From Methanomassiliicoccales archaeon (lineage in GTDB: Archaea > Thermoplasmatota > Thermoplasmata > SG8-5): a stretch of 64,000 nucleotides of DNA. The stretch is from positions 1,233-65,232 of the forward strand of contig JAUWNU010000001.1 of NCBI GenBank assembly GCA_030612505.1. Reading direction: 5' to 3'. The notes beneath the pieces are model-generated. The model made no database searches, was not told the DNA's origin, and saw nothing but the letters and a program-made list of their open reading frames with translations. Positions 2,321 to 40,068 of this stretch are shown here, one piece after another (position 1 is the first letter of the stretch; each line of letters opens with the position of its first letter). The position numbers were made by a program, and so were the translations under genes.

Positions 2321-2387
2321 TGTTTCTATTGATGCTACAAATGTCCTCAAAAGATATTTAAAGGGGAGAATACAATATAATAAAACA

Positions 2388-2395
2388 AAAGAGGT
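2388..2395 (+). promoter_or_regulatory. Shine-Dalgarno site GAGGTGAG, 7 nt upstream of the FG-GAP protein start. Similar GGAGG sites precede the starts at 1576, 8392 and 10390.
   Basis: Complementary to the archaeal 16S 3' end CCUCC. Recurs at consistent spacing before several genes. Confidence 0.6.
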
Positions 2396-2401
2396 GAGAA
2401 G

Positions 2402-15464: not shown

Positions 15465-15748
15465 ATGTACTGGAGTATTTTTGTGAAATTATCTGCGCTG
15501 GCTCACTGAACATGTCCGAGCAGGATGCGCGAATTCTTTCGGAATTCAAGCCAGTAACACCCATGCGATTTGTGAGTGTTACTGTCGAACCTTCAGGTTT
15601 GCGGATGAAGCGAGGAATGGTTCAGTATCAGGGCTTCTCTGGGTTTTAACCCAGAGAAGTGCTTCCCACTCTAAGAATTCCGTTAGACATCCCTGAATAT
15701 CATTGATGACAGTATAACCAATTTTCATATGTCATTCAATGTAAAACT

Positions 15749-15818
15749 GATAGGGATGCCGCTGCTTTCGGGCGTTAACCCGAAAGCAGACCACCCTTTA
15801 GGGTTGGGGAGCCCTCAC
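15749..15818 (+). repeat. Copy 1 of a approx. 70-nt GC-rich hairpin element (GATAGGGATGCC-GCTGCTTTCGGG-cgttaa-CCCGAAAGCAGACC-ACCCTTTAGGGTTGGGGAGCCCTCA)
   Basis: Near-identical to 27855-27921. The linked motif GAACCTTCAGGTTTGCGGAT at 15586-15606 also recurs at 27761-27781. Confidence 0.7.
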
Positions 15819-19534: not shown

Positions 19535-20170
19535 CTACTGTGCAACCTGCTTGCCGCAGTGTGGACAATTATTGTAACTTGCCGGTATCTGCTGTCCGCA
19601 TCCTGTGCACACCCGGGAACCACTATTTTGCTGATCATGCCCAACCGATGCTTTGCCACAGTGGGGACAGTTGTGGTAATTTGCCAGTATCTGCTGTCCG
19701 CATCCAGTGCATATTCTCTGTGGTGGCGGTGGTGTACCATACCCTGGCGGTGGCGCTCCATATCCTGGCGGTGGTGGCATATAACCTGCCCCTCTTGTTG
19801 CGTTTATCAAATCATCAAATTTCATGTAGGCAATTAAAAGAATAATACCGGGAATCATGTTTATAAATATAAGGCCTACAATCATCCAGATAAGTGTCTT
19901 TGATTTTGCCTGCTCATATTGACCCTGGTCTATCATTTCATTTATCTTAGTGCAATTAATATAGAATAGGAATCCAAGAATCACCGGAATAATACCAACT
20001 ATCAGGAGAGGCCAAAAGATAAGCGCTAGCCAGATCATTATAATCATTCCAATTATAGCCATGATTATTCCAAATATGCCAGCAATATTAACAAGGCTCT
20101 TGATAGAATCCACTTCTGGCGGTGTCATACCATAGGGCATTGGCGGCTGTTGATAGTACTGTCCAGTCAT
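19535..20170 (-). CDS. Membrane protein with a Q/P-rich N-terminus, TM helices, a PPPGYG repeat linker and two tandem C-terminal zinc ribbons. Ends with a TAG stop.
   Basis: CTGCGQQILANYHNCPHCGK and CTGCGQQIPASYNNCPHCGK. The DNA-level duplication is visible at 19561-19620 and 19660-19720. Confidence 0.65.
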   Translation of the reverse strand: MTGQYYQQPPMPYGMTPPEVDSIKSLVNIAGIFGIIMAIIGMIIMIWLALIFWPLLIVGIIPVILGFLFYINCTKINEMIDQGQYEQAKSKTLIWMIVGLIFINMIPGIILLIAYMKFDDLINATRGAGYMPPPPGYGAPPPGYGTPPPPQRICTGCGQQILANYHNCPHCGKASVGHDQQNSGSRVCTGCGQQIPASYNNCPHCGKQVAQ

Positions 20171-23856: not shown

Positions 23857-24102
23857 ATGAACGAAGAAGCATTAATTAAAATTAAACAGGCATTGGATAA
23901 TTCCATATGCCCCCATGGCTGCAAATGCTATCGAATTAAGCCGGATGAGATATGCAAGGCCAGGGTAACCGATCTAGAAAATCTATTGGAATGCCTTGAG
24001 GATGAACCAGAACACTGCACATTCTCAATGGCCTTCGGCGGCATATATTATTGCAAGTGTCAGGTGAGAATCGAATTGGCAAAAATTTTGAATGAATCAT
24101 GA
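23857..24102 (+). CDS. Small Cys-rich protein (8 Cys; possible metal-binding), start uncertain
   Basis: CPHGCKCY...C..C...CKCQ pattern. The ORF track gives a longer AT-rich N-terminal extension that is probably non-coding. Confidence 0.3.
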   Translation: MNEEALIKIKQALDNSICPHGCKCYRIKPDEICKARVTDLENLLECLEDEPEHCTFSMAFGGIYYCKCQVRIELAKILNES

Positions 24103-24339
24103 TTTAGAAATAATTTCTTCGCTAGCCTTTTTCAGACCGCCAGGGCCTTTAGCCAGTACAAAATTCAACCCAACTTTTTCTGCAACCAGTCTATCGCTTT
24201 CAAAGTCCCCTACAAACCAGGATTTTGCATAGTCAATGTCATACTTATCATTGACCTTGTCGAACATGAAGATTATGGCATGGATGCCTTTTTTGAACGG
24301 TTCTTTTCTTTTAATCATGAGAATACCGAATTTAGCCAA
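24097..24339 (-). pseudogene. Chimeric remnant: 5' end similar to the adjacent membrane-protein gene (MIKRKEPFKKGIHAIIF) fused to a 3' fragment of a gmhB paralog
   Basis: C-terminal FDKVNDKYDIDYAKSWFVGDFESDRLVAEKVGLNFVLAKGPGGLKKASEEI versus GmhB FDQVNEKYDVDYANSWFVGDFESDREIAERMGLRFKLARGDGGLRKAVEEI. About 75 percent nucleotide identity. The HAD catalytic DxD N-terminus is missing. Confidence 0.7.
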
Positions 24340-24766
24340 TTTCTATGCAATCATGGTCATCTGTTTTCACCAAGTCCAATATGAACAAAACGAGATTCAA
24401 TACCTGTATTGCTACGATAATCGTAACCAGGGCGTAAAGCAGCCTTTCATTCTCTATGGTAGCGATGGTAAAAATAAATGCAAATACAAAAGGAATGGCA
24501 AAAGTAGCCCCCGCAAGCCTCACCACTAATTCATATTTCTGGATTTTTTCTTTATCCCGGTTCTTGATATCCAATTTGTAGGCGTAATAAAAACACAGAC
24601 CCATCAGGAAGAGAGAGATAAATACCAATATTACCCAGAACACCTGATTAAAAGAATTGTCTGGGCCAAGCCGAATAAATAAAAAGAGGATACCCAATAA
24701 AACAACACCGTACATGATGATTATGGCATGGATGGCTCTTTTAAAGGGTTCTTTTCTTTCGAACAT
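24332..24766 (-). CDS. Small membrane protein (4 TM), hypothetical
   Basis: N-terminus MFERKEPFKRAIHAIII shared with the chimeric remnant. Hydrophobic helices. Confidence 0.5.
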   Translation of the reverse strand: MFERKEPFKRAIHAIIIMYGVVLLGILFLFIRLGPDNSFNQVFWVILVFISLFLMGLCFYYAYKLDIKNRDKEKIQKYELVVRLAGATFAIPFVFAFIFTIATIENERLLYALVTIIVAIQVLNLVLFILDLVKTDDHDCIEIG

Positions 24767-24802
24767 GGAAATCCTACCTTTGACTTTCTAACCTCGCAAC
24801 TA

Positions 24803-25300
24803 TCAACCTATAATGTTTTTCAGTATTTCTTCAACCGCCTTCCTCAACCCGCCGTCGCCCCTTGCCAGCTTGAACCTCAATCCCATTCTCTCCGCTATCT
24901 CCCGGTCGCTTTCAAAGTCCCCCACAAACCATGAATTTGCATAGTCCACGTCATACTTCTCATTGACCTGGTCGAATAATCCAGTTTCAGGCTTTCTGCA
25001 TTTGCAATTGTCCTCTGGAGCATGGGGACAGTAAAACACTTCCTCCACAATTCCGCCGCCTTCCTCTATCTCGAAAAGCATATTGTTGTGAATGACCTCA
25101 AGTCCCTCTTCTGTCAAGAGTCCCCGGCCAATTGGTGACTGATTGGTAATAATAATAATCTTGTAGCCAGCTCCAGATATTTCTGCTATGGCCTTTATTG
25201 CGCCTTCCAGGAACTCAAATTCTGGCCATGAAAGTACATACTTCCCAAGCTCGAGACGGTTAATGACTCCATCACGGTCCAGAAAGACAAATTTATCCAC
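24803..25300 (-). CDS. gmhB: D-glycero-D-manno-heptose 1,7-bisphosphate phosphatase (HAD-IIIA, GmhB)
   Basis: FLDRDGVIN motif I. HAD-IIIA size (165 aa). Operon with gmhA, hddA and hddC. Confidence 0.8.
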   Translation of the reverse strand: MDKFVFLDRDGVINRLELGKYVLSWPEFEFLEGAIKAIAEISGAGYKIIIITNQSPIGRGLLTEEGLEVIHNNMLFEIEEGGGIVEEVFYCPHAPEDNCKCRKPETGLFDQVNEKYDVDYANSWFVGDFESDREIAERMGLRFKLARGDGGLRKAVEEILKNIIG

Positions 25301-25886
25301 GCCTGGCCAACTCCTCTTCCTTGAGCATTAGAGTTGTCAAATGGTCAACAAGCATGTGTATGTCTTCGGTTTTCTGCATATTGTGAACTGGCACAATGAG
25401 GCATAAATCTACCATATCCTTAATCTTGCCGCCGTCAAAGCCAGTTATTCCCACAGTGGTCCCATCATTCTCGTTTGCATAGCTTATTGCCCGCAGCACA
25501 TTCTCGGAATTTCCGGAGCCAGAGATTCCAACAACAATATCCCCCGGTTCCATGAGATTCTTCAATTGCTCTATGAAAATGTCCTCATAACATGAATCAT
25601 TACCCCATGCCAGCATCTGTGGAATATTATCCGCAAGACTCAGTACCTTAAAACGAGGTACCCCTTCAACAATTGTGCCTTTGGCCAGGTCGCTGGTGAA
25701 GTGAGAAGCTGTTGAAGCACTTCCACCATTGCCGCAAAAAAATATTTTGCGATTATCTGCCCTGGCTTCCATGAAAATGGTGGCCAGTTGGTCAAAAAAA
25801 TCTGCATTATTCACCTTGATATCCTCAAGTATCCGGATAATATCGTTCAGGTAGTCGTTTATAAATTTTTCACGGAATTCATTCAT
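25293..25886 (-). CDS. gmhA: Phosphoheptose (sedoheptulose-7-phosphate) isomerase GmhA (SIS domain)
   Basis: SIS motif FFCGNGGSASTASHFTSDL. About 195 aa. Confidence 0.85.
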   Translation of the reverse strand: MNEFREKFINDYLNDIIRILEDIKVNNADFFDQLATIFMEARADNRKIFFCGNGGSASTASHFTSDLAKGTIVEGVPRFKVLSLADNIPQMLAWGNDSCYEDIFIEQLKNLMEPGDIVVGISGSGNSENVLRAISYANENDGTTVGITGFDGGKIKDMVDLCLIVPVHNMQKTEDIHMLVDHLTTLMLKEEELARRG

Positions 25887-25890
25887 TTTA

Positions 25891-26901
25891 TCAATCTCCG
25901 TTGATTATTGTGGCGCCTTTTTTATCGAAATGGAAGTCCAGCGGGCTTAAACCTTCCTTCACCATGGCCTTGGTAACTGCTTTCTGATGCGGTTTATCAC
26001 AATACACCATGAAGTAACCTCCGCCACCTGCACCTGTGAGCTTACCGCCAAGTGCGCCGTTCTTCTTGGCCAGTTCATACATCTTATCGATTCTGGGATT
26101 AGAAATACCCTTGGCTAGATTTTTCTTGAACTGCCATGATTCGTCCAGAAGTCGCCCGAACTCATTCAGGTCTCCAGACTCTAGAGCCTTCTTAACCTCA
26201 AAAGCTATCTCTTTAATTTTATGAAGTGACTCAACAACTTCTCCCTTATCATCTCTTGTAGATTTATCCTGGCTCTTGAGAATCTTTGAGGACTCGCGGG
26301 TTCTGCCAGTGAAGAAGAGCATGATATCATCCTCCATGCGAACACGAACTTCCCTGGCTATATTGAGAGGTTCAACTTCCACAGTTCCATCTTTATTAAA
26401 TTGCATGAAATTTACACCGCCAAAGGCAGCAGCATACTCATCTTGCTTGCCAATTGGCATCTTCAGTTCATTGTATCCAATATCATATGCCAGTTCAGCT
26501 ATTTCCTGCTTTGTGAGTTTTAATCTCTCAAGCTCATTAATGATATTGATTATATTTACTGTCACAGTGCCAGATGAACCTAATCCAGTGCCCGGCGGAA
26601 TCTCACTTGCCATGAATATATTAAGGCCGCGCTGAACATTAAAATGCTTTAGAACAGCAACTGGAATATCAAGCCCTTTTCCCAGCTTCAGGTCATAAAA
26701 ATCCTTCACAGTATGATGAACCTGCAAATCCGAAGAAATGAGCTGAATTCGGTCATCCAGTCTTATCTCTAGAATGGTGTAAAAATACTTGTTTATGGCT
26801 GCGCTTACAACAACTCCACCATACTTCTCGTAGTATGATGCTAGGTCTGTCCCGCCTCCGCCAAAGCTTATTCTTACTGGTGAACGACTAATCAGTGTCA
26901 T
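25891..26901 (-). CDS. hddA: GHMP kinase, D-glycero-D-manno-heptose 7-phosphate kinase (HddA-type)
   Basis: GHMP motif PPGTGLGSSGTVTV. Context between gmhA and a nucleotidyltransferase. Confidence 0.75.
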   Translation of the reverse strand: MTLISRSPVRISFGGGGTDLASYYEKYGGVVVSAAINKYFYTILEIRLDDRIQLISSDLQVHHTVKDFYDLKLGKGLDIPVAVLKHFNVQRGLNIFMASEIPPGTGLGSSGTVTVNIINIINELERLKLTKQEIAELAYDIGYNELKMPIGKQDEYAAAFGGVNFMQFNKDGTVEVEPLNIAREVRVRMEDDIMLFFTGRTRESSKILKSQDKSTRDDKGEVVESLHKIKEIAFEVKKALESGDLNEFGRLLDESWQFKKNLAKGISNPRIDKMYELAKKNGALGGKLTGAGGGGYFMVYCDKPHQKAVTKAMVKEGLSPLDFHFDKKGATIINGD

Positions 26902-27589
26902 TTATTTCCCTTCTGGCCAGTTCCAGTCCTTCTGGGGTTCCTATATCATAGAACCTCTGGCTGGTCAATAGTCCAAAAAGGCGACCTGTATTTATTAATT
27001 TTGGGAATATGGATTCCTCCAGGGAAAATATACGTCCAGGCGCATAATCCAGTATATCTCTGCTGAAAAGTGAAAGTCCGGCTTCCAGGCCGTTCATTGA
27101 GTCCGGCGAATTCTTCTTGATATAGTCCATTATTCGCCCATCTGGCATTATGCGAGTATTGTTTGGCGCGATATTGTCATTGTTCAGATAAATTGAAATT
27201 ACACCCTGGGCATCATTCTCCTCCTGAACTCTTGCCAGATGCCTTAATTCCAGCGGTAAATAACTATCTCCAAATGCAAAGAAGAATTTTTCGTCAAGCA
27301 AATGCCTGGCATTCAGCAGAGCGCCTCCGGTTCCCAGAGGTTCAAGCTCCACAGAATGAACTATTTCAACACCATGCTGGCTGCCGTCTCCAAAATGCTC
27401 TTCAATATGCTCATGAAGATGGCCGGTGCAGAACACGAATTTCTGAATGCCTTGGGCTTTGAAATATTCAACCAGTATCTCCAGAAAAGGACGCTGGCCG
27501 AAGGGAATCATTGACTTGGGAATGTCATATGTTAATGGATGAAGCCTTGTTCCCAGGCCACCGCAAAGAAATACTGCCTGCTTTACCAT
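26888..27589 (-). CDS. hddC: Sugar-1-phosphate nucleotidyltransferase, D-glycero-D-manno-heptose 1-phosphate guanylyltransferase (HddC-type). Start set at MVKQAVFLCGG; the longer ORF-track N-terminus runs into the repeat element.
   Basis: AVFLCGGLGTRLHPLTYDIPKSMIPF (GGxGTRL signature). About 230 aa. Confidence 0.75.
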   Translation of the reverse strand: MVKQAVFLCGGLGTRLHPLTYDIPKSMIPFGQRPFLEILVEYFKAQGIQKFVFCTGHLHEHIEEHFGDGSQHGVEIVHSVELEPLGTGGALLNARHLLDEKFFFAFGDSYLPLELRHLARVQEENDAQGVISIYLNNDNIAPNNTRIMPDGRIMDYIKKNSPDSMNGLEAGLSLFSRDILDYAPGRIFSLEESIFPKLINTGRLFGLLTSQRFYDIGTPEGLELARREINDTD

Positions 27590-27721
27590 AATATCACTTG
27601 TAAACCACCAGGCCTTAAAATATTTGGCGTTCTTATTCATGCCTGTATGTTTCCAAAAGGCCAGTCGCACACCTAACTTCTCGGAACTATCGGTTCCGAG
27701 TTTATTAAACACGCGCCACAC

Positions 27722-27785
27722 CCTAATACCGCTGCTTTCGGGTATGGCCCGAAAGCAGAGCAACCTTCAGGTTTGCGGATACAGG
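27722..27785 (+). repeat. Partial copy of the hairpin element (GCTGCTTTCGGGtatggCCCGAAAGCAGAG) fused to the GAACCTTCAGGTTTGCGGAT motif
   Basis: Shares both sub-motifs with the 15586-15818 region. Confidence 0.65.
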
Positions 27786-27838
27786 GTGCTCATCAAAATG
27801 ATATATTTCATTTTATTGGATTGGCGTGTTTTTAATAA

Positions 27839-27921
27839 GGGCTCCCAGGTATCCGATAGGGATACCGCTGCTTTCGGGCGTTAACCCGAAAGCAGACCAT
27901 CCTTTAGGGTGGGGAGCCCTC
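27839..27921 (+). repeat. Copy 2 of the approx. 70-nt hairpin element, here embedded in an outer inverted repeat GGGCTCCC...GGGAGCCC
   Basis: GATAGGGATACCGCTGCTTTCGGGCGTTAACCCGAAAGCAGACCATCCTTTAGGGTGGGGAGCCCTCA, more than 90 percent identical to 15749-15818. Confidence 0.7.
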
Positions 27922-27965
27922 ATTTGATTAGAAATGTACGGTATGCGACGATCATTCACGCGTTA

Positions 27966-28916
27966 TTATTTGGAATATACATAGGGATTTTCCAATAGCC
28001 AGCGCACTGTTCTGCGAATCGTTTCCTCAATATTAACCTGTGGTTTCCAGCCATATGCCATAAGCTTCGAAACGTCCAGATGAACAAGGGGAGAATCACC
28101 AATCCAGCCACGCTCTCCTCCAGTGAACTTGTACTCAACATTATTCAGACCTAGCTCATCAGTAATAATGTCTGCCACGCTCTTCACTTCTATGAACTCG
28201 GTCTGGCCGATATTGAATAGCTCGGCATTGCCAGGGGTATTTTCATACCCAGTGAAGAAGCCGTCAATGCAATCGCCGATATAACAATAAGATTTTCTTG
28301 CTGTTCCATCGCCCAGTATTTCCAGCTGGGCAGGGTTAGCTTTCAGCTTTTTCACGAAATCATAGGTCACACCATGGGGGTGCCGCTCTCCCTGAATTGA
28401 AACAAAGCGATACATCCAGCTTTTGATTCCATATGCCTCGGTGAATGCTTCAATAAAGCCCTCGCAGGCCATTTTTGATGCACCATAGAATGAGGTTTGC
28501 CTTGGGTGATAAGTTTCAGGTGTTGGAAATACATCCGGCTCCCCATAAGTTGCCGCTGTTGAACTGAAAATTATCTGTTTCACATCATTGAGCCGCATTG
28601 CCTCCAGAATATTGTAAGTGACTATGATATTCCTGTCTATATCTCGAAAGGTGTCCTCAAGTCCATGACGCACATCAGCATTTGCAGCCAGATGGAATAC
28701 CGCATCAGCATCTTTCAGCGCATCCTTGGTCTTCTCCATGTCTCCCAGGTCGAAATTTAGAAGCTTGACAGCATCTTTGTCCAGGTGATGTTGAATATTT
28801 TCTATATAGCCAGTGCTCATATTATCTATAATTGTAACATCATGCCCCTGCTTGACCAGACGGTCAACAACATGGCTGGCAATGAACCCGCATCCTCCTG
28901 TGACTATTGCTTTCAT
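27966..28916 (-). CDS. NAD-dependent epimerase/dehydratase (extended SDR; UDP-glucose 4-epimerase-like or heptose epimerase)
   Basis: N-terminal MKAIVTGGCGFIASHVVDRL (GxxGxxG), the YxxxK catalytic region, and ITGYENTPGNAELFNIGQ. Confidence 0.8.
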   Translation of the reverse strand: MKAIVTGGCGFIASHVVDRLVKQGHDVTIIDNMSTGYIENIQHHLDKDAVKLLNFDLGDMEKTKDALKDADAVFHLAANADVRHGLEDTFRDIDRNIIVTYNILEAMRLNDVKQIIFSSTAATYGEPDVFPTPETYHPRQTSFYGASKMACEGFIEAFTEAYGIKSWMYRFVSIQGERHPHGVTYDFVKKLKANPAQLEILGDGTARKSYCYIGDCIDGFFTGYENTPGNAELFNIGQTEFIEVKSVADIITDELGLNNVEYKFTGGERGWIGDSPLVHLDVSKLMAYGWKPQVNIEETIRRTVRWLLENPYVYSK

Positions 28917-29378: not shown

Positions 29379-31697
29379 TTGAATAATACAAGAGGGGAAG
29401 CCATGAGGCAATCTACTTTGCAATTCAAGTGGGCAGTGATATTGACCAGTATTCTAATGATAAGCAGCACACTGGCTGCTGCCATGATAGTTGGTTCCAC
29501 CTCACCAGATGGAGGATTGGAAACCCTAAATGCTGGAGAACCGAACATCTTCTGGATTGGATTCAATGACACTGCAGGAACATCCAGGCTTGACCAGATG
29601 GTTGATGTTGAGAACTGGTATAATTTCACATGTGGATTCAATTACAGCTAGGGCTTTTTCAATTGCGAGATTATTGTAGAGGCCTGGTATGACTGTGGGC
29701 TGGCAGGAAACAGTTCTGCTTACCCACCAGAAACAGAGGACAACCGGAGTCTGGCCTTCAGCCTTCTATACGATGTTGCGACAGTCTCTTACACCATACA
29801 GTACCCGGGAGCAACACCAGGTACCATGGAGATAGCTATAAACGATTCCTGGGACACTGCTGTCATTGACTGGGTGCACCCAACCAACTCCCCAATGGAG
29901 GACATACTTGCACTGACAATACCAATTTACCTGGGACCGCAGATAAGAAATGCAGATGGCAATGGCTTTGGCTCTGGAGATTTAGATTATAATTCAGACC
30001 CAAATAATGCCTTACTGGACATAAACAGCTGGGACTTCGAGATCACTGTAAGGGACTCTGCAAATACTTCACTGGCTTCTTCCAGCTACGGAGAGTTCGG
30101 AATCAACCCGCATTGTGATATTTCTGTTACTGGAAATCCTGTTGGGGAAGCACCACCTGGCACTGCCGCTACTCTCCTGGCAAATCCAACTCATATCACC
30201 TATTCAGCTAACAATGATTATTGGGTCAATGTTTCTGTGACTAATCTTCTGGAAAATGGTGTAGGGCCAGCTTCTATTTCTGCAACCGATGTAGAAGTTC
30301 AAAATTCTGACCCATATGCAACTACTGGTAACTCAGATATATCCGCACAAACATATTTCCCTGGCCCAGGTATTGATATGCAAGTCTGGGGACAGCCAGG
30401 TATTCCAATGAATGCCCCAGGAAATGGAACAATAGCTACTGGCCCCTGGGTATCTGATTACAATGCAGCAATGTATGGGCTAAATGACTATACCCAGCTT
30501 GATTGGTGGATCACGGTTAGTGCAGCTACGCCAGAAGGGGTTTATTATGGAGATATCACAATTACAATAGAAGATTCTAATGGAAACACAGTAATGGACC
30601 AGACTACTCAGATAATTGTCAATGTTGTTTTCCCTCATTTATATTGGATTGGATTCAATGGAACAGGCATGAACTCAAAACTTGACCAGGTTGTAGATAC
30701 TGATAACTGGTACAATTTTACAGTGACTGGCAATTATTCACAGGGTTGGAACGGCCTCCAGGTGGAGATAAGGGCATGGTATGATAATGGTAATATTGGC
30801 TTTATGTCAACATATCCTCCTGTAACTCCTGAAAATAAAAACCTGGCATTCAGTATTACATATGAAGTTTTCAGTGGAATTTGCACTGTATATTATCCAA
30901 TAGGGCCGCAGGTTCAGGTAGGAACAGTCAGTGATGTGATCACATGGATAAATCCAATAAACATAGGAGAAGACTGGCATACTGTCAACATTCCAGTTTA
31001 CCTTGGAAATTCATTGATTTCCGCTGATGGTATGGGCTTCGCCAGTGGTGACCTTGCCTATCACTCTGACCCTAATTTGGCCTTGCAGGATGCTTTCAGC
31101 TGGGACTTTGAGGTCATTCTCAGGGATGCAATCAACCCAACAGCCTTGGACTTAAGCTATGCAGAATTCGGCCTTGACAACTCAACGCCCAGCTTTCCAA
31201 TATCTCTAGACGCTGGCTGGAATCTTATTTCGCTGCCGCTTGAACAGGCAGATGAATATTTGCCATCTGTTCTGAGTTCCATTGACGGCCAGTATGATAT
31301 TGTGAAATACTATGATGCCACTGACCAAAATGACCCATGGAAAACCTACAGAATAGGCGCATCAACCAATGATTTATTTTCAATTGATAGGACAATGGGT
31401 TTCTGGATTCATCTTACAGCAAATAATGGCGACCAGACATTGACGACAGGTATTGAAGGCACTTTCCCACCAGCCGCAGTAACTCTATACGCTGGCTGGA
31501 ATCTTGTTAGTTATCCTTCCATATCCCCGGATACTGTCGCAAATGCCTTATGGGGCACAGGAGCCGATATAGTCGAAGTATTTGACCCTGCAGAGCCTTA
31601 TTTGATAAGAGAGGTAAATGCGGATTATATGATGCAGCCTGGAGAAGGTTATTGGGTTCATGTTCCTGCGGACACAATATGGATGGTTGATTGGTAA
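29379..31697 (+). pseudogene. Secreted protein gene with two approx. 330-aa tandem repeats and a C-terminal GWNL domain, interrupted by a single in-frame TAG at 29649-29651. Either a pseudogene, a sequencing error, or split into ORFs 29379-29651 and 29826-31697.
   Basis: Both ORFs are in the same frame. The N-terminal signal peptide is in ORF1. The repeat motif NIFWIGFNDTAGTSRLDQMVDVENWYNFT (ORF1) matches LYWIGFNGTGMNSKLDQVVDTDNWYNFT (ORF2), and the alignment continues across the stop. Confidence 0.65.
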
Positions 31698-31774
31698 GAT
31701 TATAAGAAATATTTATATAACACCAATCGCAACAGTTAAATACAATACAAAATGGCGCACGTACATACTTATAT

Positions 31775-34700
31775 GTGATTATACATATTATGTCCAATAC
31801 AAAGTTAAAGGTGTTCATAATGGAGAGGAAAGATGTTTTTGTGCGCGGCCTTTCGATTGTTCTTGTAATATCAATGGTTTTTGGTTCAATACCATATTTC
31901 ACAATGGCCTCGGAGACCGTAGGCCAGATTGATATTGAAGTGACTAATCAAGAATTGGCAACCTATAATCTGGCTGTTTCCGAAATAGAGCTCAAGGAGA
32001 TTATTCCTGTTGAGGAAAATCAGGGTTCGCCGGCGCCAAGCCCATTTGCCACATTTGAGATTATGTATGCGGATTCGGCTATTGATCAGGGTGCTGGAGC
32101 AGTGCCCGAGGCAACTGGCACTCCTGATGATGTTCGCTTTTCATTCGGTGGAAATGCAAATTATGTAAGAGCTAGCGGCTCTACCTGGGGAGCTGGAGCA
32201 GGCTCAATCCTGTCAGTGGAAATCGCAGCAGAATGGTCATCTAGTGGTCTGACTGATGATGGTGCAATTATCCAGTATTATGATTCTGGAATTGGCGGCG
32301 TGGGAGCCACAAAGACAGCTGTGGATGCAAACAACTATGCTGTTGATAACACACTCTATCTGGACATAACCGCAGACAAGGCTAGCTGGACCTGGACTGA
32401 TGTGGGTAATGTCAACCCTGAGATATATTACCTCAAAGCCGGAGGCCCGGACGGCGGAACTCTAAGCATTGATGCACTCTGGATACGGGTACAATATGAA
32501 TCCATTTCAATTGACTATGATATCCCTGTGACCGTTGGCTGGAACCTTATAAGCGTTCCTTCGGTACAGGGAAACACCGACATTCTCACAGTACTGGATG
32601 ATGCTGGCGGCGATACTACCTGGGAGAGAGCTTCACATTACAATCCCCTGATAGCTGATAATCTATGGCAGTCCTATTCTATTTTCAAACCACCTACCCT
32701 GAATGAGCTGAACGATGTGAACAATAAGCTTGGCATCTGGGTGGACATAACAGATGTGGGAAGCGATGGCCTTCTCACAGTAAGCGGCAGCCCGCCTTCC
32801 ATGACTGCAATCAATCTCTATGCAGGCTGGAACCTTGTTGGGTATCCCTGCTTGGAAAGCCAGATGGCTATGAATTCACTGGCTGGCGTACCATACGATG
32901 CTCTGGAATGCCATGATGGTGGAGCACCATACCTACTCAGAACAATGCTGAACACAGAAATGATGGTTCCCGGTATTGGTTACTGGATAAAGGTAACCAG
33001 CGATTGTGTATGGAATGTGGGAGACATTACACCACCTACATTTGCAGGTCTTGTTTCTGCCCTGGATGCTGGAACCGGAGGAAGCGTTCTGCTGAACTGG
33101 AATCCGGCAACAGACCCCTCATACCCCATTACCTACAATATTTACATGGCCACAACATCTGGCGGCCAGGACTTTGGAACTCCGGATTATATTACAGACC
33201 TGACAGATTTCCAGGTTGATGGTTTGACAGACAATCAGGACTATTATTTCGTGGTAAGGGCAAAGGACTCTGCTGGCAATGAGGATTCAAACCTGGTTGA
33301 GAAAACAGCAATTCCAACAACACCAGATGCTACAAGCCCCTGGATAACAGCAACTGTTCCTGCAGATGCAGCAACAGGAATCGGCATTGCCCAGTCAATT
33401 ATAATTACCTTTTCAGAATCAATCAATACAGGTACATTCGTTTATTCCTGCGCACCCAACCCAGGCGGTTGGATAGAAACATGGGATACATTTGTGGAAA
33501 CAAATGATAGAGTAACCCTGACCCGCAATGACCTGGCTTTCGACACATTGTACACATTCCAGGTAACAGCAGCGGATGACCTGGCAGGCAATCCCCTGGT
33601 TGCCGGACCGGCACTGAACCCATGGACATTCACGACTATTGCAGCCCCAGACCTTACAGGACCAGTAACTTCTGGAGTATCAGCAACACCCAATCCCACC
33701 GATGGTGCTGGCACAGTCACATTAACAGCAACTGTTGATGATTCAACCACTGGCGGCTCTAATATTGCAGAGGCAGAGTACTTCGTGGATTCAGTAGGCG
33801 CTGACGGAAGTGGAACACTAATGGTAGCCAGTGATGGAAATTTCAACTCTGTGACAGAGGGCGTAACCGCTTCAATTGATGTTTCTGGATGGGCGCTGGG
33901 AACCTACACCTTGTATGTGCACGGACGGGATGCTTCAGGAAACTGGGGTGCTACAGACAGTACAATACTAGATGTCACCAATACACCTGATATCACAAGC
34001 CCCTGGATTGTAATAACAGCACCGGTGGACGGAGCAACTGGCGTATTAATTGGCCAGTCAATTGTAATTACTTTCTCGGAATCAATTAACACAGGCACAT
34101 TCGCCTACACCTGCACACCGAACCCAGGTGGCTGGGGCGAATCCTGGGACGCTGCAGTCGAGACCAATGACAGAGTAACATTAACCCACAGTGACTTTGC
34201 ATTTGACACATTATATGATTTCCAGGTAACAGCGGCAGACGACCTTGCTGGAAATCCCCTGGCAGCCGGACCAGTTCCGAACCCCTGGACATTCACAACC
34301 GAGCTGGAACCGACACCACCACAGGTTGTAGAGCCAACTTCACCTGCAAACGGAGCAATAGATGTGCCAGCCACATCAAACATCCAGATAACTTTCACAG
34401 AGGCCATGAACGAGGCATCTGTGGAATCCTGGTTCAATATTAATCCGGCAACAGCAGGAACATTCTCATGGAATCCAGGCAGTACAATTCTCACTTTCAC
34501 ACCCACAGGAGACCTTGCATTTGACCAGGTATACACCGTGACGATTGACGGTCTGGTGGAGGACCAGGAAGCCGAGACACTGGACGGCGATTATGACGGC
34601 GTTTCCGAGGGAAGCCCGACAGATGATTATGCCTTCTCGTTCACAACGGAAGCGGCACCCACGCCGCCCCAGGTGGTAGAACCGACGAATCCGGCAAACG

Positions 34701-37483
34701 GGGATGTAAACGTTCTAGTTACAGCAGCCATCCAGATACCGTTCACCGAGGCCATGAATGAGGCAAGCACCGAGGCGGCGTTCTCCATCGGCCCGGTTGT
34801 CGCAGGTGCATTCTCCTGGAATGTGGCAAGCGATATAATGACGTTCACGCCGTCCGCCGACCTATCGTATGAAACCACCTACACGGTCACCATTGATGGA
34901 ACCGCCCAGGACCAGCAGGCCGAGACACTGGACGGTGATTATGATGGTGTTTCCGAGGGCTCGCCGACGGACGATTATTCATTCTCATTCACCACGGAGG
35001 CAGCGGTCACACTCCCACAGGTCACGTCCACCATTCCGGTAAACGGTGCCGCGGGCGTTCTGGTGACCGACCCGATAATAATAAACTTCAACATGGCAAT
35101 GTGCGAGGATGGAAACGGCAAGGCACCCTGGGACGCGGGTTGTGTAGAAGGGGCGTTCACGGTAACCTATGGCGCGACCACATTGACCGCAGGAGACTTC
35201 ACGATATCCTGGAACGCAGCAAATGACCAGATCACCTTCATTCCCGTTACTTCCTACCCCTACGGAACAGTGATGAGCGTGACAGTTGACGGCACGGCCT
35301 TGGAAACCACGGAAACGTACACCCTGGACGGGAATTACAATTCAGTATCCGAAGGCTCCCCGATAGATGACTATTCGTGGAGCTTCACCACAGAGCCAGC
35401 ACCCACACCGCCGCAGGTTGTGGAACCGACATCCCCGCCGAATGGAGCGGTTGATGTCTTGATCACATTGGTCATACAGGTAACCTTCACGGAGGCCATG
35501 AACGAGGCAAGCACCGAGGCAGCGTTCTCCATCGGCCCGGTTATCGCAGGCACGTTCTCCTGGAACCCCAGCAGCACTATTCTGACGTTCACGCCATCGG
35601 CCGACCTCGCGTACGATACTGTATATTCGATAATCATCGCTGGAACCGCGCAGGACCAGGAGGCCGAAACACTGGACGGCGATTATGACGGCGTTTCCGA
35701 GGGAAGCCCGACAGATGACTATTCATTCTCGTTCACCACCCAGGCAGCACCCACGCCACCCCAGGTAATCTCCACATCACCCACCGACGGAGCCATTGGC
35801 ATCTCTTTATCCACGACAATCCAGATTACCTTCTCCGAGGCCATGAACGAGGCAAGCACCGAGGCAGCGTTCTCCATCGGCCCGGTTGTGGCCGGTGTGT
35901 TCTCCTGGAACCCAGGCAGCACAATTCTCACGTTCACACCATCCGCCGATCTATCGTATGGAACCACCTACACGGTCACCATCGATGGCACTGCCCAGGA
36001 CCAGCAGGGCGAGACACTGGACGGCGATTATGACGGTGTTTCCGAGGGCGCGCCGACGGACGATTACACATTCGGTTTCACCACCGAGCTTCCGCCGCCC
36101 CCGCAGGTCACCAGCCACTCGCCAACCGATGGGCAGAGCAATGTCCCGCTGAGCGAACCGATCGTGATCAACTTCAACATGGCAATGAGCGAGGATGGCA
36201 ATGGCAAGGCACCCTGGGACGCGGGTTGTGTAGAAGGAGCCTTTAGCATGACCGGCGGACTGACCGCAGGTGACTTCACGATATCCTGGAACGCTGGTGT
36301 CGATCAACTTACTTTGACACCGGAAACCCCATACCCGAGCGGCACGGTCCTGACGGTCACCATAGATGGTACGGCGGAGGAATCCACAGGCACCCAGACA
36401 TTGGACGGTGACTATGACGGCACAAGCGAGGGCAGCCCCACTGACGATTACTCCTGGAGTTTCACCACGGATTCCGGCCCATCAACACCGCCACAGGTCG
36501 TCGAGCCGACCGCACCGTTCAACGGCGAAACCAATGTTGTAGCGAGCACCAACATCGTGATTACATTCACCGAGGCCATGAACGAAGCGTCAGTAGAATC
36601 CTATTTCTCCATCTCGCCAGCAGCAGCAGGGGCATTCTCATGGAACCCCGGAAGCACTATTCTCACCTTCAACCCGAATCCGGACCTGTCCACGACCACC
36701 ACATACACCGTGACCATTGACGGACTGGCAGAGGACCAGGAAGCGGAGACACTGGACGGCGATTATGATGGAACCAGCGAAGGCAGTCCGACAGATGATT
36801 ATTCATTCTCGTTCACAACCGAGGCTGGCTCGGTCAACAGATATGCGGTTTGTGTGGGGATAGACAAGCACGATGACGGCACAACCACTTGTATATACGC
36901 TGACAACGATGGCCAGGATTGGGGGAATGAACTTAATTCCCAGGGGTATTCCGTAAGCTCGCGCCTGAATACCGCTGCTGATAAGGCGGTCATACTGGGA
37001 GATATTGCAGACATGGACACTTCTGAAAATGCTGGTGACTATTGTGCCTTCACATTCGCTGGCCATGGTGGTGTCTCTGGTGGAACCCATTACATCATTT
37101 GTGCGGACTGGGATGGAACATGGGGAACGGTGATCAGCGACAGCGAGTTTGAAGCGGCCTTCTCTGGTTTCAGCAGCATGCATATATTCATATTCTTTGA
37201 CAGCTGCAACAGCGGTGGAATGAGCGAAGTTGCCGCGGCTGGCAGACTCCTGATTACGGCCTGTACGGCCGTCCAGAGCTCCTATGGCGGGGATGCCGCC
37301 ATGCAAAATGGTGTCTGGACCTGGTACTTCGTCGAGGACGGTATCCAGACACAGGGATACACCATAATGGAGGACTGTTTCAACTACGCCGCACCCGAGG
37401 CAAAGAGTTGGTTAACCACCAATTACGGAGTCACCATGGACCCCCAGATATTTGACCAGTACACAGGGGATTTCTATCTTTGA
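31775..37483 (+). CDS. Giant secreted protein (1902 aa): signal/TM, GWNL domain, FN3 domain, about 9 tandem Big_5 (SbsA-type Ig-like) repeats, and a C-terminal caspase-like (clan CD) peptidase domain
   Basis: FN3 at SVLLNWNPATDPSYPITYNIYMA. The Big_5 consensus PTPPQVVEPTSPANGAxDV...IQITFTEAMNEAS...FSWNPGSTILTFTP...YTVTIDG...ETLDGDYDGVSEGSPTDDY repeats about 9 times. The C-terminal region has FAGHGG (His) and FFDSCNSGG (Cys), in caspase-fold dyad order. Confidence 0.85.
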   Translation: MIIHIMSNTKLKVFIMERKDVFVRGLSIVLVISMVFGSIPYFTMASETVGQIDIEVTNQELATYNLAVSEIELKEIIPVEENQGSPAPSPFATFEIMYADSAIDQGAGAVPEATGTPDDVRFSFGGNANYVRASGSTWGAGAGSILSVEIAAEWSSSGLTDDGAIIQYYDSGIGGVGATKTAVDANNYAVDNTLYLDITADKASWTWTDVGNVNPEIYYLKAGGPDGGTLSIDALWIRVQYESISIDYDIPVTVGWNLISVPSVQGNTDILTVLDDAGGDTTWERASHYNPLIADNLWQSYSIFKPPTLNELNDVNNKLGIWVDITDVGSDGLLTVSGSPPSMTAINLYAGWNLVGYPCLESQMAMNSLAGVPYDALECHDGGAPYLLRTMLNTEMMVPGIGYWIKVTSDCVWNVGDITPPTFAGLVSALDAGTGGSVLLNWNPATDPSYPITYNIYMATTSGGQDFGTPDYITDLTDFQVDGLTDNQDYYFVVRAKDSAGNEDSNLVEKTAIPTTPDATSPWITATVPADAATGIGIAQSIIITFSESINTGTFVYSCAPNPGGWIETWDTFVETNDRVTLTRNDLAFDTLYTFQVTAADDLAGNPLVAGPALNPWTFTTIAAPDLTGPVTSGVSATPNPTDGAGTVTLTATVDDSTTGGSNIAEAEYFVDSVGADGSGTLMVASDGNFNSVTEGVTASIDVSGWALGTYTLYVHGRDASGNWGATDSTILDVTNTPDITSPWIVITAPVDGATGVLIGQSIVITFSESINTGTFAYTCTPNPGGWGESWDAAVETNDRVTLTHSDFAFDTLYDFQVTAADDLAGNPLAAGPVPNPWTFTTELEPTPPQVVEPTSPANGAIDVPATSNIQITFTEAMNEASVESWFNINPATAGTFSWNPGSTILTFTPTGDLAFDQVYTVTIDGLVEDQEAETLDGDYDGVSEGSPTDDYAFSFTTEAAPTPPQVVEPTNPANGDVNVLVTAAIQIPFTEAMNEASTEAAFSIGPVVAGAFSWNVASDIMTFTPSADLSYETTYTVTIDGTAQDQQAETLDGDYDGVSEGSPTDDYSFSFTTEAAVTLPQVTSTIPVNGAAGVLVTDPIIINFNMAMCEDGNGKAPWDAGCVEGAFTVTYGATTLTAGDFTISWNAANDQITFIPVTSYPYGTVMSVTVDGTALETTETYTLDGNYNSVSEGSPIDDYSWSFTTEPAPTPPQVVEPTSPPNGAVDVLITLVIQVTFTEAMNEASTEAAFSIGPVIAGTFSWNPSSTILTFTPSADLAYDTVYSIIIAGTAQDQEAETLDGDYDGVSEGSPTDDYSFSFTTQAAPTPPQVISTSPTDGAIGISLSTTIQITFSEAMNEASTEAAFSIGPVVAGVFSWNPGSTILTFTPSADLSYGTTYTVTIDGTAQDQQGETLDGDYDGVSEGAPTDDYTFGFTTELPPPPQVTSHSPTDGQSNVPLSEPIVINFNMAMSEDGNGKAPWDAGCVEGAFSMTGGLTAGDFTISWNAGVDQLTLTPETPYPSGTVLTVTIDGTAEESTGTQTLDGDYDGTSEGSPTDDYSWSFTTDSGPSTPPQVVEPTAPFNGETNVVASTNIVITFTEAMNEASVESYFSISPAAAGAFSWNPGSTILTFNPNPDLSTTTTYTVTIDGLAEDQEAETLDGDYDGTSEGSPTDDYSFSFTTEAGSVNRYAVCVGIDKHDDGTTTCIYADNDGQDWGNELNSQGYSVSSRLNTAADKAVILGDIADMDTSENAGDYCAFTFAGHGGVSGGTHYIICADWDGTWGTVISDSEFEAAFSGFSSMHIFIFFDSCNSGGMSEVAAAGRLLITACTAVQSSYGGDAAMQNGVWTWYFVEDGIQTQGYTIMEDCFNYAAPEAKSWLTTNYGVTMDPQIFDQYTGDFYL

Positions 37484-38824
37484 TCATGAACTAGGCTTGC
37501 GTCTGACAGCGATGAGGATACAAGATATAATGACAATTCCAATGAGGGCTGCCCATAACACCCGGTTGTCAGATCGATTTACACCTTCCGGTCCAATGGT
37601 CCTGTAGACGAGCCAGGTATTATCTGTTGGTTCGGGAAATTGCTCGGCAGTGTTGGTCTCCCAGATAATCATCAAATCGGTATCTAGAGGAAGTAACGCT
37701 GGGCCGCCGAGTAACAATCCCCCTCCATCTCGCCTGTCACCATCCCCGGTTGTGAGTTCGATGGTGCCGCTCCATTCACCATCAACTAATATGCGTATCA
37801 CAATATCAGAATCAGCACCCGTGGTGATGGCCGGGTCATGGGATTGCCAGCAGATATAAAGGGCATCGTCGAACACAGTCATTGTGGGTTTGAAATCGTC
37901 GCCAGAATCGTCCGTCGTGAGTTCGACCAGTGAAGAATTCCAGTGGGAGCCGTCGTAGGCCGCCACGACTATGTCCCAGTCATCACCCGAACTAATAATC
38001 GGATCATTCGTTCTCCATGCCACGCGAAGTTTATCGTCGTGGGTGCATATGGCGGTGTCCGAGTTGTCCTCTGTGCTGGTTGATGTGATATCAGAGATAT
38101 TCTGGCTCCACGAAAAACCATCGAAGGACCGCACGAGAATGTCGCTTCCCTCGTCATTCCCAAAGTTAGTCGTGTAACTCTGCCAGGCCGCATAGGCATT
38201 TCCCTGGAACGTTGTGATGGAAGGGGACCAGTTGTTGCCATTGGTGCCCTCTGACACTACAATCAGTTGCCCCCATTCTCTATTCTCATCCAAACACCTG
38301 GAAACAATGTCATATTGTGAGCCAGTCCACCTCTGCCAGACCACCAGAAGCTTCGAGCCTAGGCTTACGGCCACCGGCATTCTGTCGTTCTGGTCATCGT
38401 TCTCTGGACTCACGAGAATAAGGGTATCGTTATGGCTATTGACCTGTTTCATCACTATCTCGTCGTCTATTCCCGGGTCAACCAATTCAGAATCGCTCTG
38501 CCAGAGTACATAAATCTCACCACAATGTCTTACAAGTTTTGGCATCCCACTGTACCCATCGTCCCAAATAACCAATGGCGGTGACCATTGGCTAGAATAT
38601 TCAGAATACATTATGCATTCTGTGCTGTGACAGTAAGCCGGATCATTGGTGCTCCAAACAAGGTGTCCAGTATTTCCATCATTCAATGCAAAGGGGTCCC
38701 TGTCCATGCCGAGGGCACCGGGCAGGGTGAACTCTGTGACGCCAGTACCACCCACAAAACCAGAACCAATAAACAGCGGACCGGAAATGACCAAAACAAT
38801 GAACAGAAGGACTCGGTACTTCAT
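37484..38824 (-). CDS. Surface-anchored 7-bladed beta-propeller protein (distant BNR/sialidase-fold relative) with a signal peptide and C-terminal TM anchor
   Basis: Seven repeats of W-x-(S/T)-x-D-x5-9-D-x-D-I-V-x10-15-W. C-terminal VLWAALIGIVIISCILIAVRRKPSS. Confidence 0.65.
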   Translation of the reverse strand: MKYRVLLFIVLVISGPLFIGSGFVGGTGVTEFTLPGALGMDRDPFALNDGNTGHLVWSTNDPAYCHSTECIMYSEYSSQWSPPLVIWDDGYSGMPKLVRHCGEIYVLWQSDSELVDPGIDDEIVMKQVNSHNDTLILVSPENDDQNDRMPVAVSLGSKLLVVWQRWTGSQYDIVSRCLDENREWGQLIVVSEGTNGNNWSPSITTFQGNAYAAWQSYTTNFGNDEGSDILVRSFDGFSWSQNISDITSTSTEDNSDTAICTHDDKLRVAWRTNDPIISSGDDWDIVVAAYDGSHWNSSLVELTTDDSGDDFKPTMTVFDDALYICWQSHDPAITTGADSDIVIRILVDGEWSGTIELTTGDGDRRDGGGLLLGGPALLPLDTDLMIIWETNTAEQFPEPTDNTWLVYRTIGPEGVNRSDNRVLWAALIGIVIISCILIAVRRKPSS

Positions 38825-38835
38825 ACGAATACCAC

Positions 38836-39366
38836 CTAGGGAACTCTCTGTTGGCCAGCCAGCTCTTTCAGCTTATCAATACTGGCCAGTGAAATCAATT
38901 CAACATCAATACCGGCAAGTGCTTCTCTTGCTCCTTCTTCCCGGTCAACAATAACAATAGCCTTGTCCACCAGGCCCCTATGTTCTCGGACAGCGGCAAT
39001 GGCCCTTATCAGGCTTCCGGCAGTTGTCACCGTATCCTCAACAAAAAGCACTTTTTCACCGGCTGCCAGTCCCCCTTCAACAATGTTTCCTATGCCATGG
39101 CCTTTTCTATGTTTACGGATCATGAGATAGGGTATGTCAATCTCCAAGGATAGTGCTGCGGCAATTGGCACCGCACCGAGCTCCACGCCTGCTATCTTCT
39201 CAGCATCCCCTATGTATGAACTCATTGCCCTGGCCACCTTTTTCAGAAATTTGGGCTGAGTAATAACTACTCTCAAATCAACATAATAATCACTTTTTCT
39301 GCCTGAAGCCAGAGTAAAATCTCCAAGTTTGAAGGCTCCGGCATCTACAATTTCTTCTTCCAGCAT
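38836..39366 (-). CDS. pyrE: Orotate phosphoribosyltransferase
   Basis: PRPP-binding motif VLFVEDTVTTAGSL. 176 aa of type-I PRTase. Ends with a TAG stop. Confidence 0.85.
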   Translation of the reverse strand: MLEEEIVDAGAFKLGDFTLASGRKSDYYVDLRVVITQPKFLKKVARAMSSYIGDAEKIAGVELGAVPIAAALSLEIDIPYLMIRKHRKGHGIGNIVEGGLAAGEKVLFVEDTVTTAGSLIRAIAAVREHRGLVDKAIVIVDREEGAREALAGIDVELISLASIDKLKELAGQQRVP

Positions 39367-39414
39367 TTATTCACCTACCAGGGCACATCATTTCCCCTTA
39401 TTATAAATTATATA

Positions 39415-39996
39415 TTACCAGGGGACGTCTTTCTTCCCCATTTTAAAACCTATGATGTTCACAACCCTGTGCATTACTGGGATAAGAATTATCAATCCAA
39501 TGAAGCCAGCCAGATAAACGCCGTCAATAAAATTATCATAGAACCAGGTCCACTGAAGCGGCACAATTAAAATCATTGCGCCAATAAAGAAATCATATTG
39601 GTCCATTATTGGGAACTTGGCCCCGCGTTTCTTGCCAATACGGCGCTTTATGAAGCTTCCCAGCATGTCCCCGAACATTGAGCCGAAGGCCAGCAGAAAT
39701 AGAATTGGCAAGGCACAGGTGATGCAGGGATTTATTGTCCAGTTTGGCTGATTCAAAAAGCCCATTATGATTATCTGGATTACTCCCAGAATAACACCGC
39801 TGAGGGTTCCGCCTATAAGTCCATTCCAGGTCTTTCCATCGCCCAGTATTCTGGTGCCGTTCTTCATTGTCTTGCCGAAGTCTACAGGTGTTCCACCACC
39901 GAATAGCACCGCTGCTGAATTGGGTATCAGCATTGGAACCATTAGCCAGACCGCTCTCAGAATTGCCATGACAATTTCCAGAATGTCCATGAGCAT
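39415..39996 (-). CDS. carS: CDP-archaeol synthase (CarS, DUF46 family)
   Basis: Conserved PNSAAVLFGGGTPVDFGK...RILGDGKTWNG motif. 5 TM helices. About 190 aa. Confidence 0.8.
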   Translation of the reverse strand: MLMDILEIVMAILRAVWLMVPMLIPNSAAVLFGGGTPVDFGKTMKNGTRILGDGKTWNGLIGGTLSGVILGVIQIIIMGFLNQPNWTINPCITCALPILFLLAFGSMFGDMLGSFIKRRIGKKRGAKFPIMDQYDFFIGAMILIVPLQWTWFYDNFIDGVYLAGFIGLIILIPVMHRVVNIIGFKMGKKDVPW

Positions 39997-40068
39997 GGTA
40001 ATGTTGAGCCAATTAAAAATAGTTGGGGAATGAAATGTTTAATAGTAGCCAGCGCATTAGGGTCTTAC

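Follow-up and report, generated by a model that had tools for sequence, protein, structure and literature searches.

In bacteria, GDP-activated heptose of the alpha configuration is made by four enzymes encoded in a single operon: an isomerase of the SIS fold, a kinase of the GHMP family, a HAD-IIIA phosphatase that has a zinc loop, and a short nucleotidyltransferase of the RmlA fold with a guanine-binding glutamate. The pairing of a GHMP kinase with an RmlA-fold transferase marks this alpha/GDP architecture, whereas in the ADP/beta route the kinase is of the PfkB family and the transferase has the cytidylyltransferase fold. Here we describe an operon of the first kind in a 64,000-nt stretch of contig JAUWNU010000001.1 from a Methanomassiliicoccales archaeon (referred to below as the window, whose own positions are given unless another locus is named). 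It carries the same four enzyme types as the bacterial pathway but differs in its archaeal host, in enzyme scores that all fall below equivalog cut-offs, in an isomerase with D65, E172 and G120, and in a conserved GalE-type fifth gene encoding an extended short-chain dehydrogenase/reductase (SDR). Judging from its sequence, this operon most likely builds a C4-epimerized GDP-heptose by a five-gene route.

The N-glycan of Thermoplasma acidophilum contains D-glycero-D-galacto-heptose, and cryoEM density on the pili of Cuniculiplasma and the archaella of Oxyplasma could be fitted with the same glycan. Heptose is therefore already established in glycans of the phylum to which our operon belongs. 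An earlier note on this DNA had described heptose as rare in archaeal glycans; it is indeed rare, but the phylum at hand is one in which it is documented. The T. acidophilum sugar is the C4 epimer of D-glycero-D-gluco-heptose and could thus be reached by a 4-epimerase, whereas the conversion of manno to galacto would need a change at C2 as well; the sources that we consulted on this glycan assign no genes to the heptose.

In another route to activated heptose, the archaeal beta route, the kinases are of the HldE/HldA type, the transferases have the cytidylyltransferase fold, and the products are beta-anomers. Archaeal enzymes that make NDP-beta-D-manno-heptoses (ADP, CDP and UDP) from sedoheptulose 7-phosphate have been reported (Tang et al. 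2024); our operon is similar in that it would lead from the same precursor to heptose nucleotides but differs in having the GHMP and RmlA-fold enzymes of the alpha route. Our literature search found no published description of an alpha/GDP heptose route or cluster in archaea.

Two further systems bear on the fifth gene. PhGal4E_1 of Pyrococcus horikoshii, a GDP-preferring 4-epimerase characterized both biochemically and structurally, founded an unusually promiscuous GDP-sugar 4-epimerase (GDP-Gal4E) subgroup, and the paper that we consulted on it names no physiological substrate. The tailoring of GDP-heptose for the Campylobacter jejuni capsule employs a separate C4 dehydrogenase, cupin epimerases and C4 reductases; here, in contrast, one GalE-type enzyme would oxidize, rotate and reduce at C4, and the operon is without cupin or separate reductase genes.

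The five-gene operon and its conservation

Five intact, co-oriented open reading frames (ORFs) are tightly packed on the minus strand at 24803-28916. In order of transcription, they are as follows.

27966-28916, minus strand: extended SDR NDP-sugar epimerase of 316 residues, first gene of the conserved five-gene module, archaeal GDP-Gal4E subgroup
26888-27589, minus strand: short single-domain sugar-1-phosphate nucleotidyltransferase of 233 residues, HddC-like, probably a guanylyltransferase
25891-26901, minus strand: GHMP-family sugar kinase of 336 residues, HddA-like (heptose 7-phosphate 1-kinase, alpha-anomer)
25293-25886, minus strand: SIS-fold sugar-phosphate isomerase of 197 residues, from a distinct GmhA-like subfamily
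24803-25300, minus strand: HAD-IIIA phosphatase of 165 residues, GmhB-like (heptose 1,7-bisphosphate 7-phosphatase)

These are the contiguous gmhA, hddA, gmhB and hddC types, with an extended SDR beside them, that the earlier note had reported. The transferase ORF runs from 26888 to 27763, but homology begins at Met59 and relatives are 233 to 238 residues long; we therefore place the gene at 26888-27589, giving a 233-residue product of matching length. Overlaps of 14 nt between the transferase and kinase genes and of 8 nt between the SIS and HAD genes, with a gap of 4 nt between the kinase and SIS genes, fit clustering and cotranscription of the four pathway genes as an operon. The host is archaeal, as the earlier note had concluded: the window encodes an archaeal-type S-adenosylmethionine (AdoMet) synthetase, CDP-archaeol synthase, RIO1 and KaiC-like proteins. 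Among the named relatives of the kinase, the nearest come from metagenome-assembled genomes of Thermoplasmata/Thermoplasmatota.

The kinase was most similar to HddA among NCBIfam families (235 bits, compared with 122 bits for the next family, fucokinase). The top four PDB sequences were all heptose-7-phosphate kinases (3k85, WcbL 4usk/4usm and 4n3o; E values of 3.9e-62 to 8e-55), and relatives of the protein are named heptose-7-phosphate kinase by JGI. The phosphatase passed the HAD-IIIA and histidinol-phosphatase-type domain models TIGR01656 (125.8 bits; cut-off, 84) and TIGR01662 (103 bits; cut-off, 44.6), and its best PDB matches were the GmhB structures 3l8h and 4pnh (E values of about 4e-29). 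It has the HAD motifs and the zinc-binding CxH-x6-CxC loop by which we recognized GmhB-type enzymes, in the form of DRDG, TNQS, CPH-x6-CKC, RKP and GDFESD.

The transferase scored 134 bits with the NCBIfam mannose-1-phosphate guanylyltransferase model and 106 bits with HddC, over positions 1-214 of the 221 in that model, both below cut-off. GDP-mannose enzymes and Yersinia HddC were about equally near among its PDB matches (7whr, 8x7s and YpHddC 5xhw/6jq8; E values of about 1e-24). Its single short domain contains the sequence ELEPLGTGGA, beginning at E81, which matches the HddC motif EXEPLGTGGA and aligns with E80-A89 of YpHddC. Glu80 of YpHddC has been shown by crystallography and mutagenesis to bind guanine, and uridylyltransferases carry Gln at this position. 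The Glu is invariant across all archaeal copies of the transferase and is also present in GDP-mannose enzymes. These features suggest that the protein is probably a guanylyltransferase.

We examined conservation of the locus in a genome scan that took in the best 80 of 548 kinase relatives, all at least 49% identical, among which the archaeal species-representative loci were L007-L027 (n = 21); four further relatives with called genes were compared via exact-protein look-up. The order SDR-transferase-kinase-SIS-HAD was found in the 21 archaeal loci and in the four look-ups, as far as the contigs reach, while the flanking genes differed. The same order amid unrelated flanks argues for a functional module and not a chance arrangement. 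The SDR gene lay directly upstream of the transferase gene in 18 of the 20 assessable archaeal loci (including L008, where the start of the contig preserves a 37-nt remnant of the SDR gene), and the two genes were 1 to 23 nt apart in the four relatives with called genes, compared with 376 nt in the window. The identities of the SDR and the kinase fell together across the clade, from 91% and 94% down to 56% and 67%. The kinase also has relatives in bacteria (Acidobacteriota, Scalindua, Elusimicrobia and others), reaching identities of about 50 to 54%. We rejected the idea that the SDR is common to these bacterial loci as well, since SDRs encoded nearby were only about 25% identical and lacked the subgroup residues. 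The archaeal SDR turned out to be more than the add-on that the earlier note had seen beside four enzymes: it is the product of a conserved fifth gene and belongs to the GDP-sugar 4-epimerase subgroup. That the locus is a five-gene sugar-nucleotide supply operon, inherited vertically within a Thermoplasmatota clade, is probable in our judgment and forms part of the best explanation of these data.

The isomerase, the epimerase and the likely product

The SIS protein scored 111 bits against TIGR00441, the gmhA model, and 13 of its 15 PDB matches were phosphoheptose isomerases, the other two being DiaA, a GmhA paralogue. In E. coli GmhA numbering, it retains H61, D94, S119, S121, S124 and H180. 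Five residues served as our standard for canonical GmhA (H61, E65, Q172, H180 and T120), all of the canonical type in the GmhA of Burkholderia pseudomallei, which we take to be the capsule-cluster enzyme. In the archaeal protein, H61 and H180 are kept and the other three are changed (E65D, Q172E and T120G); R69T and D169Q are further differences. The set H61, D65, E172 and H180 is invariant in all SIS genes that adjoin a related kinase gene, about 59 copies from 20 archaeal and about 40 bacterial loci, while positions 120 (G/A/C), 69 (T/A/S), 169 (Q/G) and 119 (S/T) vary among the bacterial kinase-linked copies. D65 and E172 thus mark out a large subfamily of GmhA-like isomerases whose genes accompany those of HddA-type kinases in archaea and bacteria alike. 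It is a subfamily separate from canonical GmhA whose members probably work like GmhA, and isomerase activity is plausible because the His/Asp/Glu/His set could still bind metal. Given the changes at positions 65, 172 and 120, the substrate or the stereochemistry at C2 could differ, and the C2 configuration of the product is uncertain.

The SDR matched Archaeoglobus fulgidus GalE-1 (3ehe; E value of 1.2e-87) and PhGal4E_1 (8rdg/8rdh; E value of 2.5e-85) over its full length and is 43% identical to PhGal4E_1. It is an extended SDR with the Ser/Thr-Tyr-Lys triad of these enzymes (Y145, K149 and a catalytic Ser/Thr), as expected of the GDP-Gal4E subgroup, and it also keeps R83, H182 and the loop-G tryptophan, W277. 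We considered and rejected a 4,6-dehydratase assignment, because no Asp/Glu pair follows the catalytic Ser/Thr of the protein and a proven epimerase is among its close matches. Homology, together with the adjoining GTP-type transferase, leads us to infer that the SDR is a GDP-preferring C4 epimerase.

What separates the SDR from PhGal4E_1 and 3EHE is its place in a heptose-type operon and five fixed changes. PhGal4E_1 has four highlighted residues (P80, R83, N174 and H182), two of which are altered here (P80A and N174S); K178E, S180H and N181P lie in substrate-wall loops. All five are invariant across the cluster-linked archaeal SDRs, which are 56 to 91% identical to the window protein, and occur in none of the Pyrococcus, Archaeoglobus and Pyrobaculum enzymes. 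Clade-fixed changes in the loops that wall the substrate fit a different physiological substrate. We rejected the possibility that the GDP-Gal4E subgroup is generally linked to heptose, since the P. furiosus and P. abyssi homologues lie outside heptose clusters. The P. abyssi epimerase adjoins a GDP-hexose-type transferase, so a transferase and a GDP 4-epimerase are paired in another setting as well, there for a different sugar. The subgroup is thus not specific to heptose and pairs with whichever GDP-sugar transferase adjoins it.

Gene content, order and intactness, family resemblances, diagnostic motifs and the conservation of the module are the observations from which we predict the substrates and products, the configurations at C2 and C4 and the destination of the sugar in glycans. 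In the proposed route, the SIS isomerase would convert sedoheptulose 7-phosphate to an aldoheptose 7-phosphate, the GHMP kinase would add the anomeric (alpha) phosphate at C1, the HAD-IIIA phosphatase would remove the 7-phosphate, and the short nucleotidyltransferase would use GTP to form GDP-heptose. The SDR, from a specialized GDP-sugar 4-epimerase branch of the GalE type, would then interconvert GDP-heptose and its C4 epimer. If the isomerase sets the manno configuration, the epimer would be D-glycero-D-talo-heptose; if it sets gluco, the epimer would be D-glycero-D-galacto-heptose. Glycosyltransferases encoded elsewhere would use the product for surface glycans. The ADP/beta route was rejected for this operon on the grounds of enzyme fold.

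A number of observations weigh against this pathway. The four pathway enzymes score below the function-specific cut-offs: 600 bits for HddA, 300 bits for HddC, and 209 bits for TIGR00441, with the isomerase below the cut-off of every NCBIfam phosphoheptose-isomerase model tested; the phosphatase reaches 157.9 of the 178 bits set for the GmhB model PRK08942 and falls below every GmhB-specific cut-off. Annotation pipelines give the transferase generic names alone (NDP-sugar pyrophosphorylase). The active-site changes in the isomerase count here, as do P80A and N174S in the SDR, with which its chemistry could differ. One locus, L023, lacks the SDR and keeps the other four genes; in L016, a gene for a 456-residue transposase (3531-4901, minus strand) replaces it; and in the window, a 376-nt gap that is largely insertion parts it from the other four. 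Among the window ORFs scanned there was no glycosyltransferase, oligosaccharyltransferase or AglB, and the best 80 of 548 kinase relatives, all at least 49% identical, included none from Thermoplasma or other Thermoplasmatales. The profile assignments that the earlier note had suggested thus gave best matches of the HddC, HddA, GmhA and GmhB types, but none that cleared a function-specific cut-off. Its claim of a complete GDP-D-glycero-D-manno-heptose pathway holds insofar as the four enzyme types are intact and contiguous, with heptose-kinase structures as matches and the HddC motif in place; it is weakened by these scores, by the noncanonical isomerase and by the SDR. Because the SDR is a conserved member of a 4-epimerase subgroup, the end product is probably not plain GDP-D-glycero-α-D-manno-heptose.

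These points have to be set against other ways of explaining the locus. If the four enzymes make up the pathway as the earlier note had it, the SDR would be a 4-epimerase of hexose nucleotides in general that happens to share the transcription unit. The four-enzyme set is by itself the complete characterized pathway of Aneurinibacillus thermoaerophilus, and the Pyrococcus homologues outside heptose clusters, the four genes of L023 and the insertion that uncouples the SDR in the window all favor such a bystander. A bystander would not be expected to stay beside the transferase gene in nearly all assessable archaeal loci, within 23 nt where genes have been called, when all other neighbors change, nor to form a subclade with its own invariant pocket substitutions, and we consider this explanation unlikely, though far from negligible. 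The operon might instead work on six-carbon sugars, as a bypass of a mutase that leads from fructose 6-phosphate through hexose 6-phosphate, hexose 1,6-bisphosphate and hexose 1-phosphate to a GDP-hexose and its 4-epimer. The departures of the isomerase from canonical GmhA at catalytic positions, the slightly higher score of the transferase with the mannose-1-phosphate guanylyltransferase model than with HddC and the activity of PhGal4E_1 on GDP-hexoses would all fit. Such a bypass is nevertheless very unlikely in view of the structural matches, which point to heptose for the isomerase, the kinase (best four) and the phosphatase (best two), the large margin by which the kinase prefers HddA and the length, architecture and motif that the transferase shares with HddC.

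A change of nucleotide, to UDP, CDP or ADP, or a product that feeds a small molecule instead of a surface glycan, seems hardly probable at all: the transferase has an invariant guanine-binding Glu at the position of the Gln of uridylyltransferases, and the partner SDR belongs to a GDP-preferring subgroup. This is so even though one close transferase structure, 8x7s, is annotated as UTP dependent, archaeal enzymes for ADP-, CDP- and UDP-heptoses of the beta route have been reported, and no glycosyltransferase is encoded among the window ORFs scanned. We therefore return to the five-gene route to a C4-epimerized GDP-heptose. Its more specific form, in which the SDR is a dedicated GalE-type GDP-heptose 4-epimerase, the true product is the C4-epimerized GDP-heptose and the GDP-Gal4E subgroup thereby gains a physiological substrate in this clade, we put forward tentatively, as a serious possibility. 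Its strongest form, in which the D65/E172 isomerase sets gluco at C2 and the operon makes GDP-D-glycero-alpha-D-galacto-heptose, the isomer found in T. acidophilum N-glycans, would be a long shot.

Insertions, repeats and surface-protein genes around the operon

Three features in or beside the operon fall outside the conserved genes.

27590-27965, no strand: intergenic stretch of 376 nt, mostly a lineage-specific insertion (about 370 bp, 27606-27975) with two hairpin-repeat copies
24332-24766, minus strand: ORF for a predicted membrane protein of 144 residues, inside a lineage-specific insertion and outside the conserved module
24097-24339, minus strand: 80-residue ORF, remnant of a second gmhB 3' end, with weak HAD C-terminal matches; probably a pseudogene fragment

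The insertion at 27606-27975 is absent from L007 and L008, in which the SDR and transferase genes abut. Each of its two repeat copies has the hairpin core CTGCTTTCGGG-N6-CCCGAAAGCAG. A third copy, 95.7% identical over 69 nt, lies at 15749-15817, upstream of the AdoMet synthetase gene, and further sites were found in the window (15588-15606), in L024 (4126-4296) and in L001 (5910-5958). The element at 27825-27925 on the minus strand folds into a closed multistem structure (-55.7 kcal/mol; z = -8.2) and could represent either a small RNA or an element of the MITE type. Rfam gave a full-length but subthreshold SAM-I riboswitch match at 27721-27826 on the plus strand (26.8 bits, compared with a gathering score of 44.4 bits; E value of 4e-4 for the 301 nt searched). 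This match is partly built on the hairpin repeat, and we treated it as probably due to chance because it is antisense to the operon, has no gene downstream and finds no counterpart in Rfam upstream of the AdoMet synthetase gene.

The closest relatives lack an insertion of about 712 bp that follows gmhB in the window (24097-24824). A 152-nt direct repeat, 74% identical, links 24113-24264 with the gmhB 3' end at 24825-24976, and in L007 and L008 the segment at 24097-24339 finds its match in the 3' end of gmhB and the DNA that follows it. The ORF for the 144-residue membrane protein is flanked by 64-nt direct repeats, 83% identical, at 24261-24324 and 24709-24772; it had no tblastn match in 86 related loci and no blastn match. 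This insertion and its duplicate of the gmhB 3' end account for the left boundary, 24097, that the earlier note had given for its cluster at 24097-28916. Pathway genes occupy that span from 24803 on, while 24097-24802 consists of the insertion and the duplicated gmhB fragment.

The earlier note had also proposed the giant surface proteins next to the cluster as plausible targets of glycosylation. Genes for KaiC-like, CarS and phosphoribosyltransferase proteins directly precede the module in L001 and L023 and are its ancestral neighbors; the same genes lie at 38836-40770 in the window, where a block of surface-protein genes at 29826-38824 sits between them and the SDR gene. Since the ancestral neighbors differ, adjacency to giant surface proteins is lineage specific. 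Surface-protein genes are also found near the operon in L016 and inside it in L008, but such genes are abundant in these genomes, so that there is no base rate for their proximity. In L008, which like L016 is a close relative with a disrupted operon, the gene in question (794-4129, minus strand) encodes a sequon-rich surface protein of 1111 residues and is inserted between the transferase and kinase genes; the junctions carry a duplication of about 93 bp.

The nearest giant protein (31775-37483, plus strand; 1902 residues) combines Big_5 repeats with one fn3 and one caspase-like domain. Despite 93 Asn residues and a Ser plus Thr content of 21%, it contains no N-x(not P)-S/T sequon, whereas 5000 shuffles of its sequence gave a mean of 18.3 ± 3.7 and a minimum of 7. 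A homologous fragment of 748 residues in L016 (1239-3482, minus strand) also has none. The lack of sequons looks like selection against N-glycosylation, and with none where 18.3 are expected, this protein is a poor target for it. The proposed targets do adjoin the cluster, but the adjacency is not conserved and the nearest of them carries no sequons; the search for AglB and glycosyltransferases that the earlier note had recommended found none among the window ORFs scanned.

Sequons are unusually frequent, at 3.1 to 4.1 per 100 residues, in three more distant paralogous BNR/Big_5 proteins of about 1180 residues (51063-54605, 55406-58957 and 60099-63623, all plus strand), compared with 0 to 1 per 100 residues in cytoplasmic proteins of the window. 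Two other proteins have CARDB domains: one of 3308 residues (40991-50917, minus strand), which also has subtilase and beta-helix/NosD domains, and one of 311 residues (58997-59932, minus strand). Their N-terminal 40 residues are nearly identical (M.TE..RNGVEVG.KTKIFAS....LFIFSAFSTAQAQGM), which suggests that they have a leader in common or that a 5' end was duplicated. In the 211-residue product of an ORF at 19535-20170 on the minus strand, a Pro/Gly/Tyr-rich N terminus occurs together with two transmembrane-like segments, PPPGYG repeats and, at the C terminus, two zinc-ribbon motifs in tandem (CTGCGQQI...NCPHCGK).

Implications for archaeal heptose synthesis

The operon is most likely a bacterial-type pathway with one added step, and homology, motifs and conserved synteny lend good support to its reading as a source of heptose nucleotides. 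Its genes are thus candidates for those behind heptose synthesis in a heptose-bearing phylum. They are conserved and easily cloned and so offer a concrete means of asking how Thermoplasmatota make the heptose of their N-glycans. They point to a one-enzyme route to rare GDP-heptose epimers, and they may provide a natural substrate for the archaeal GDP-sugar 4-epimerases, which have so far been studied mainly as promiscuous biocatalysts.

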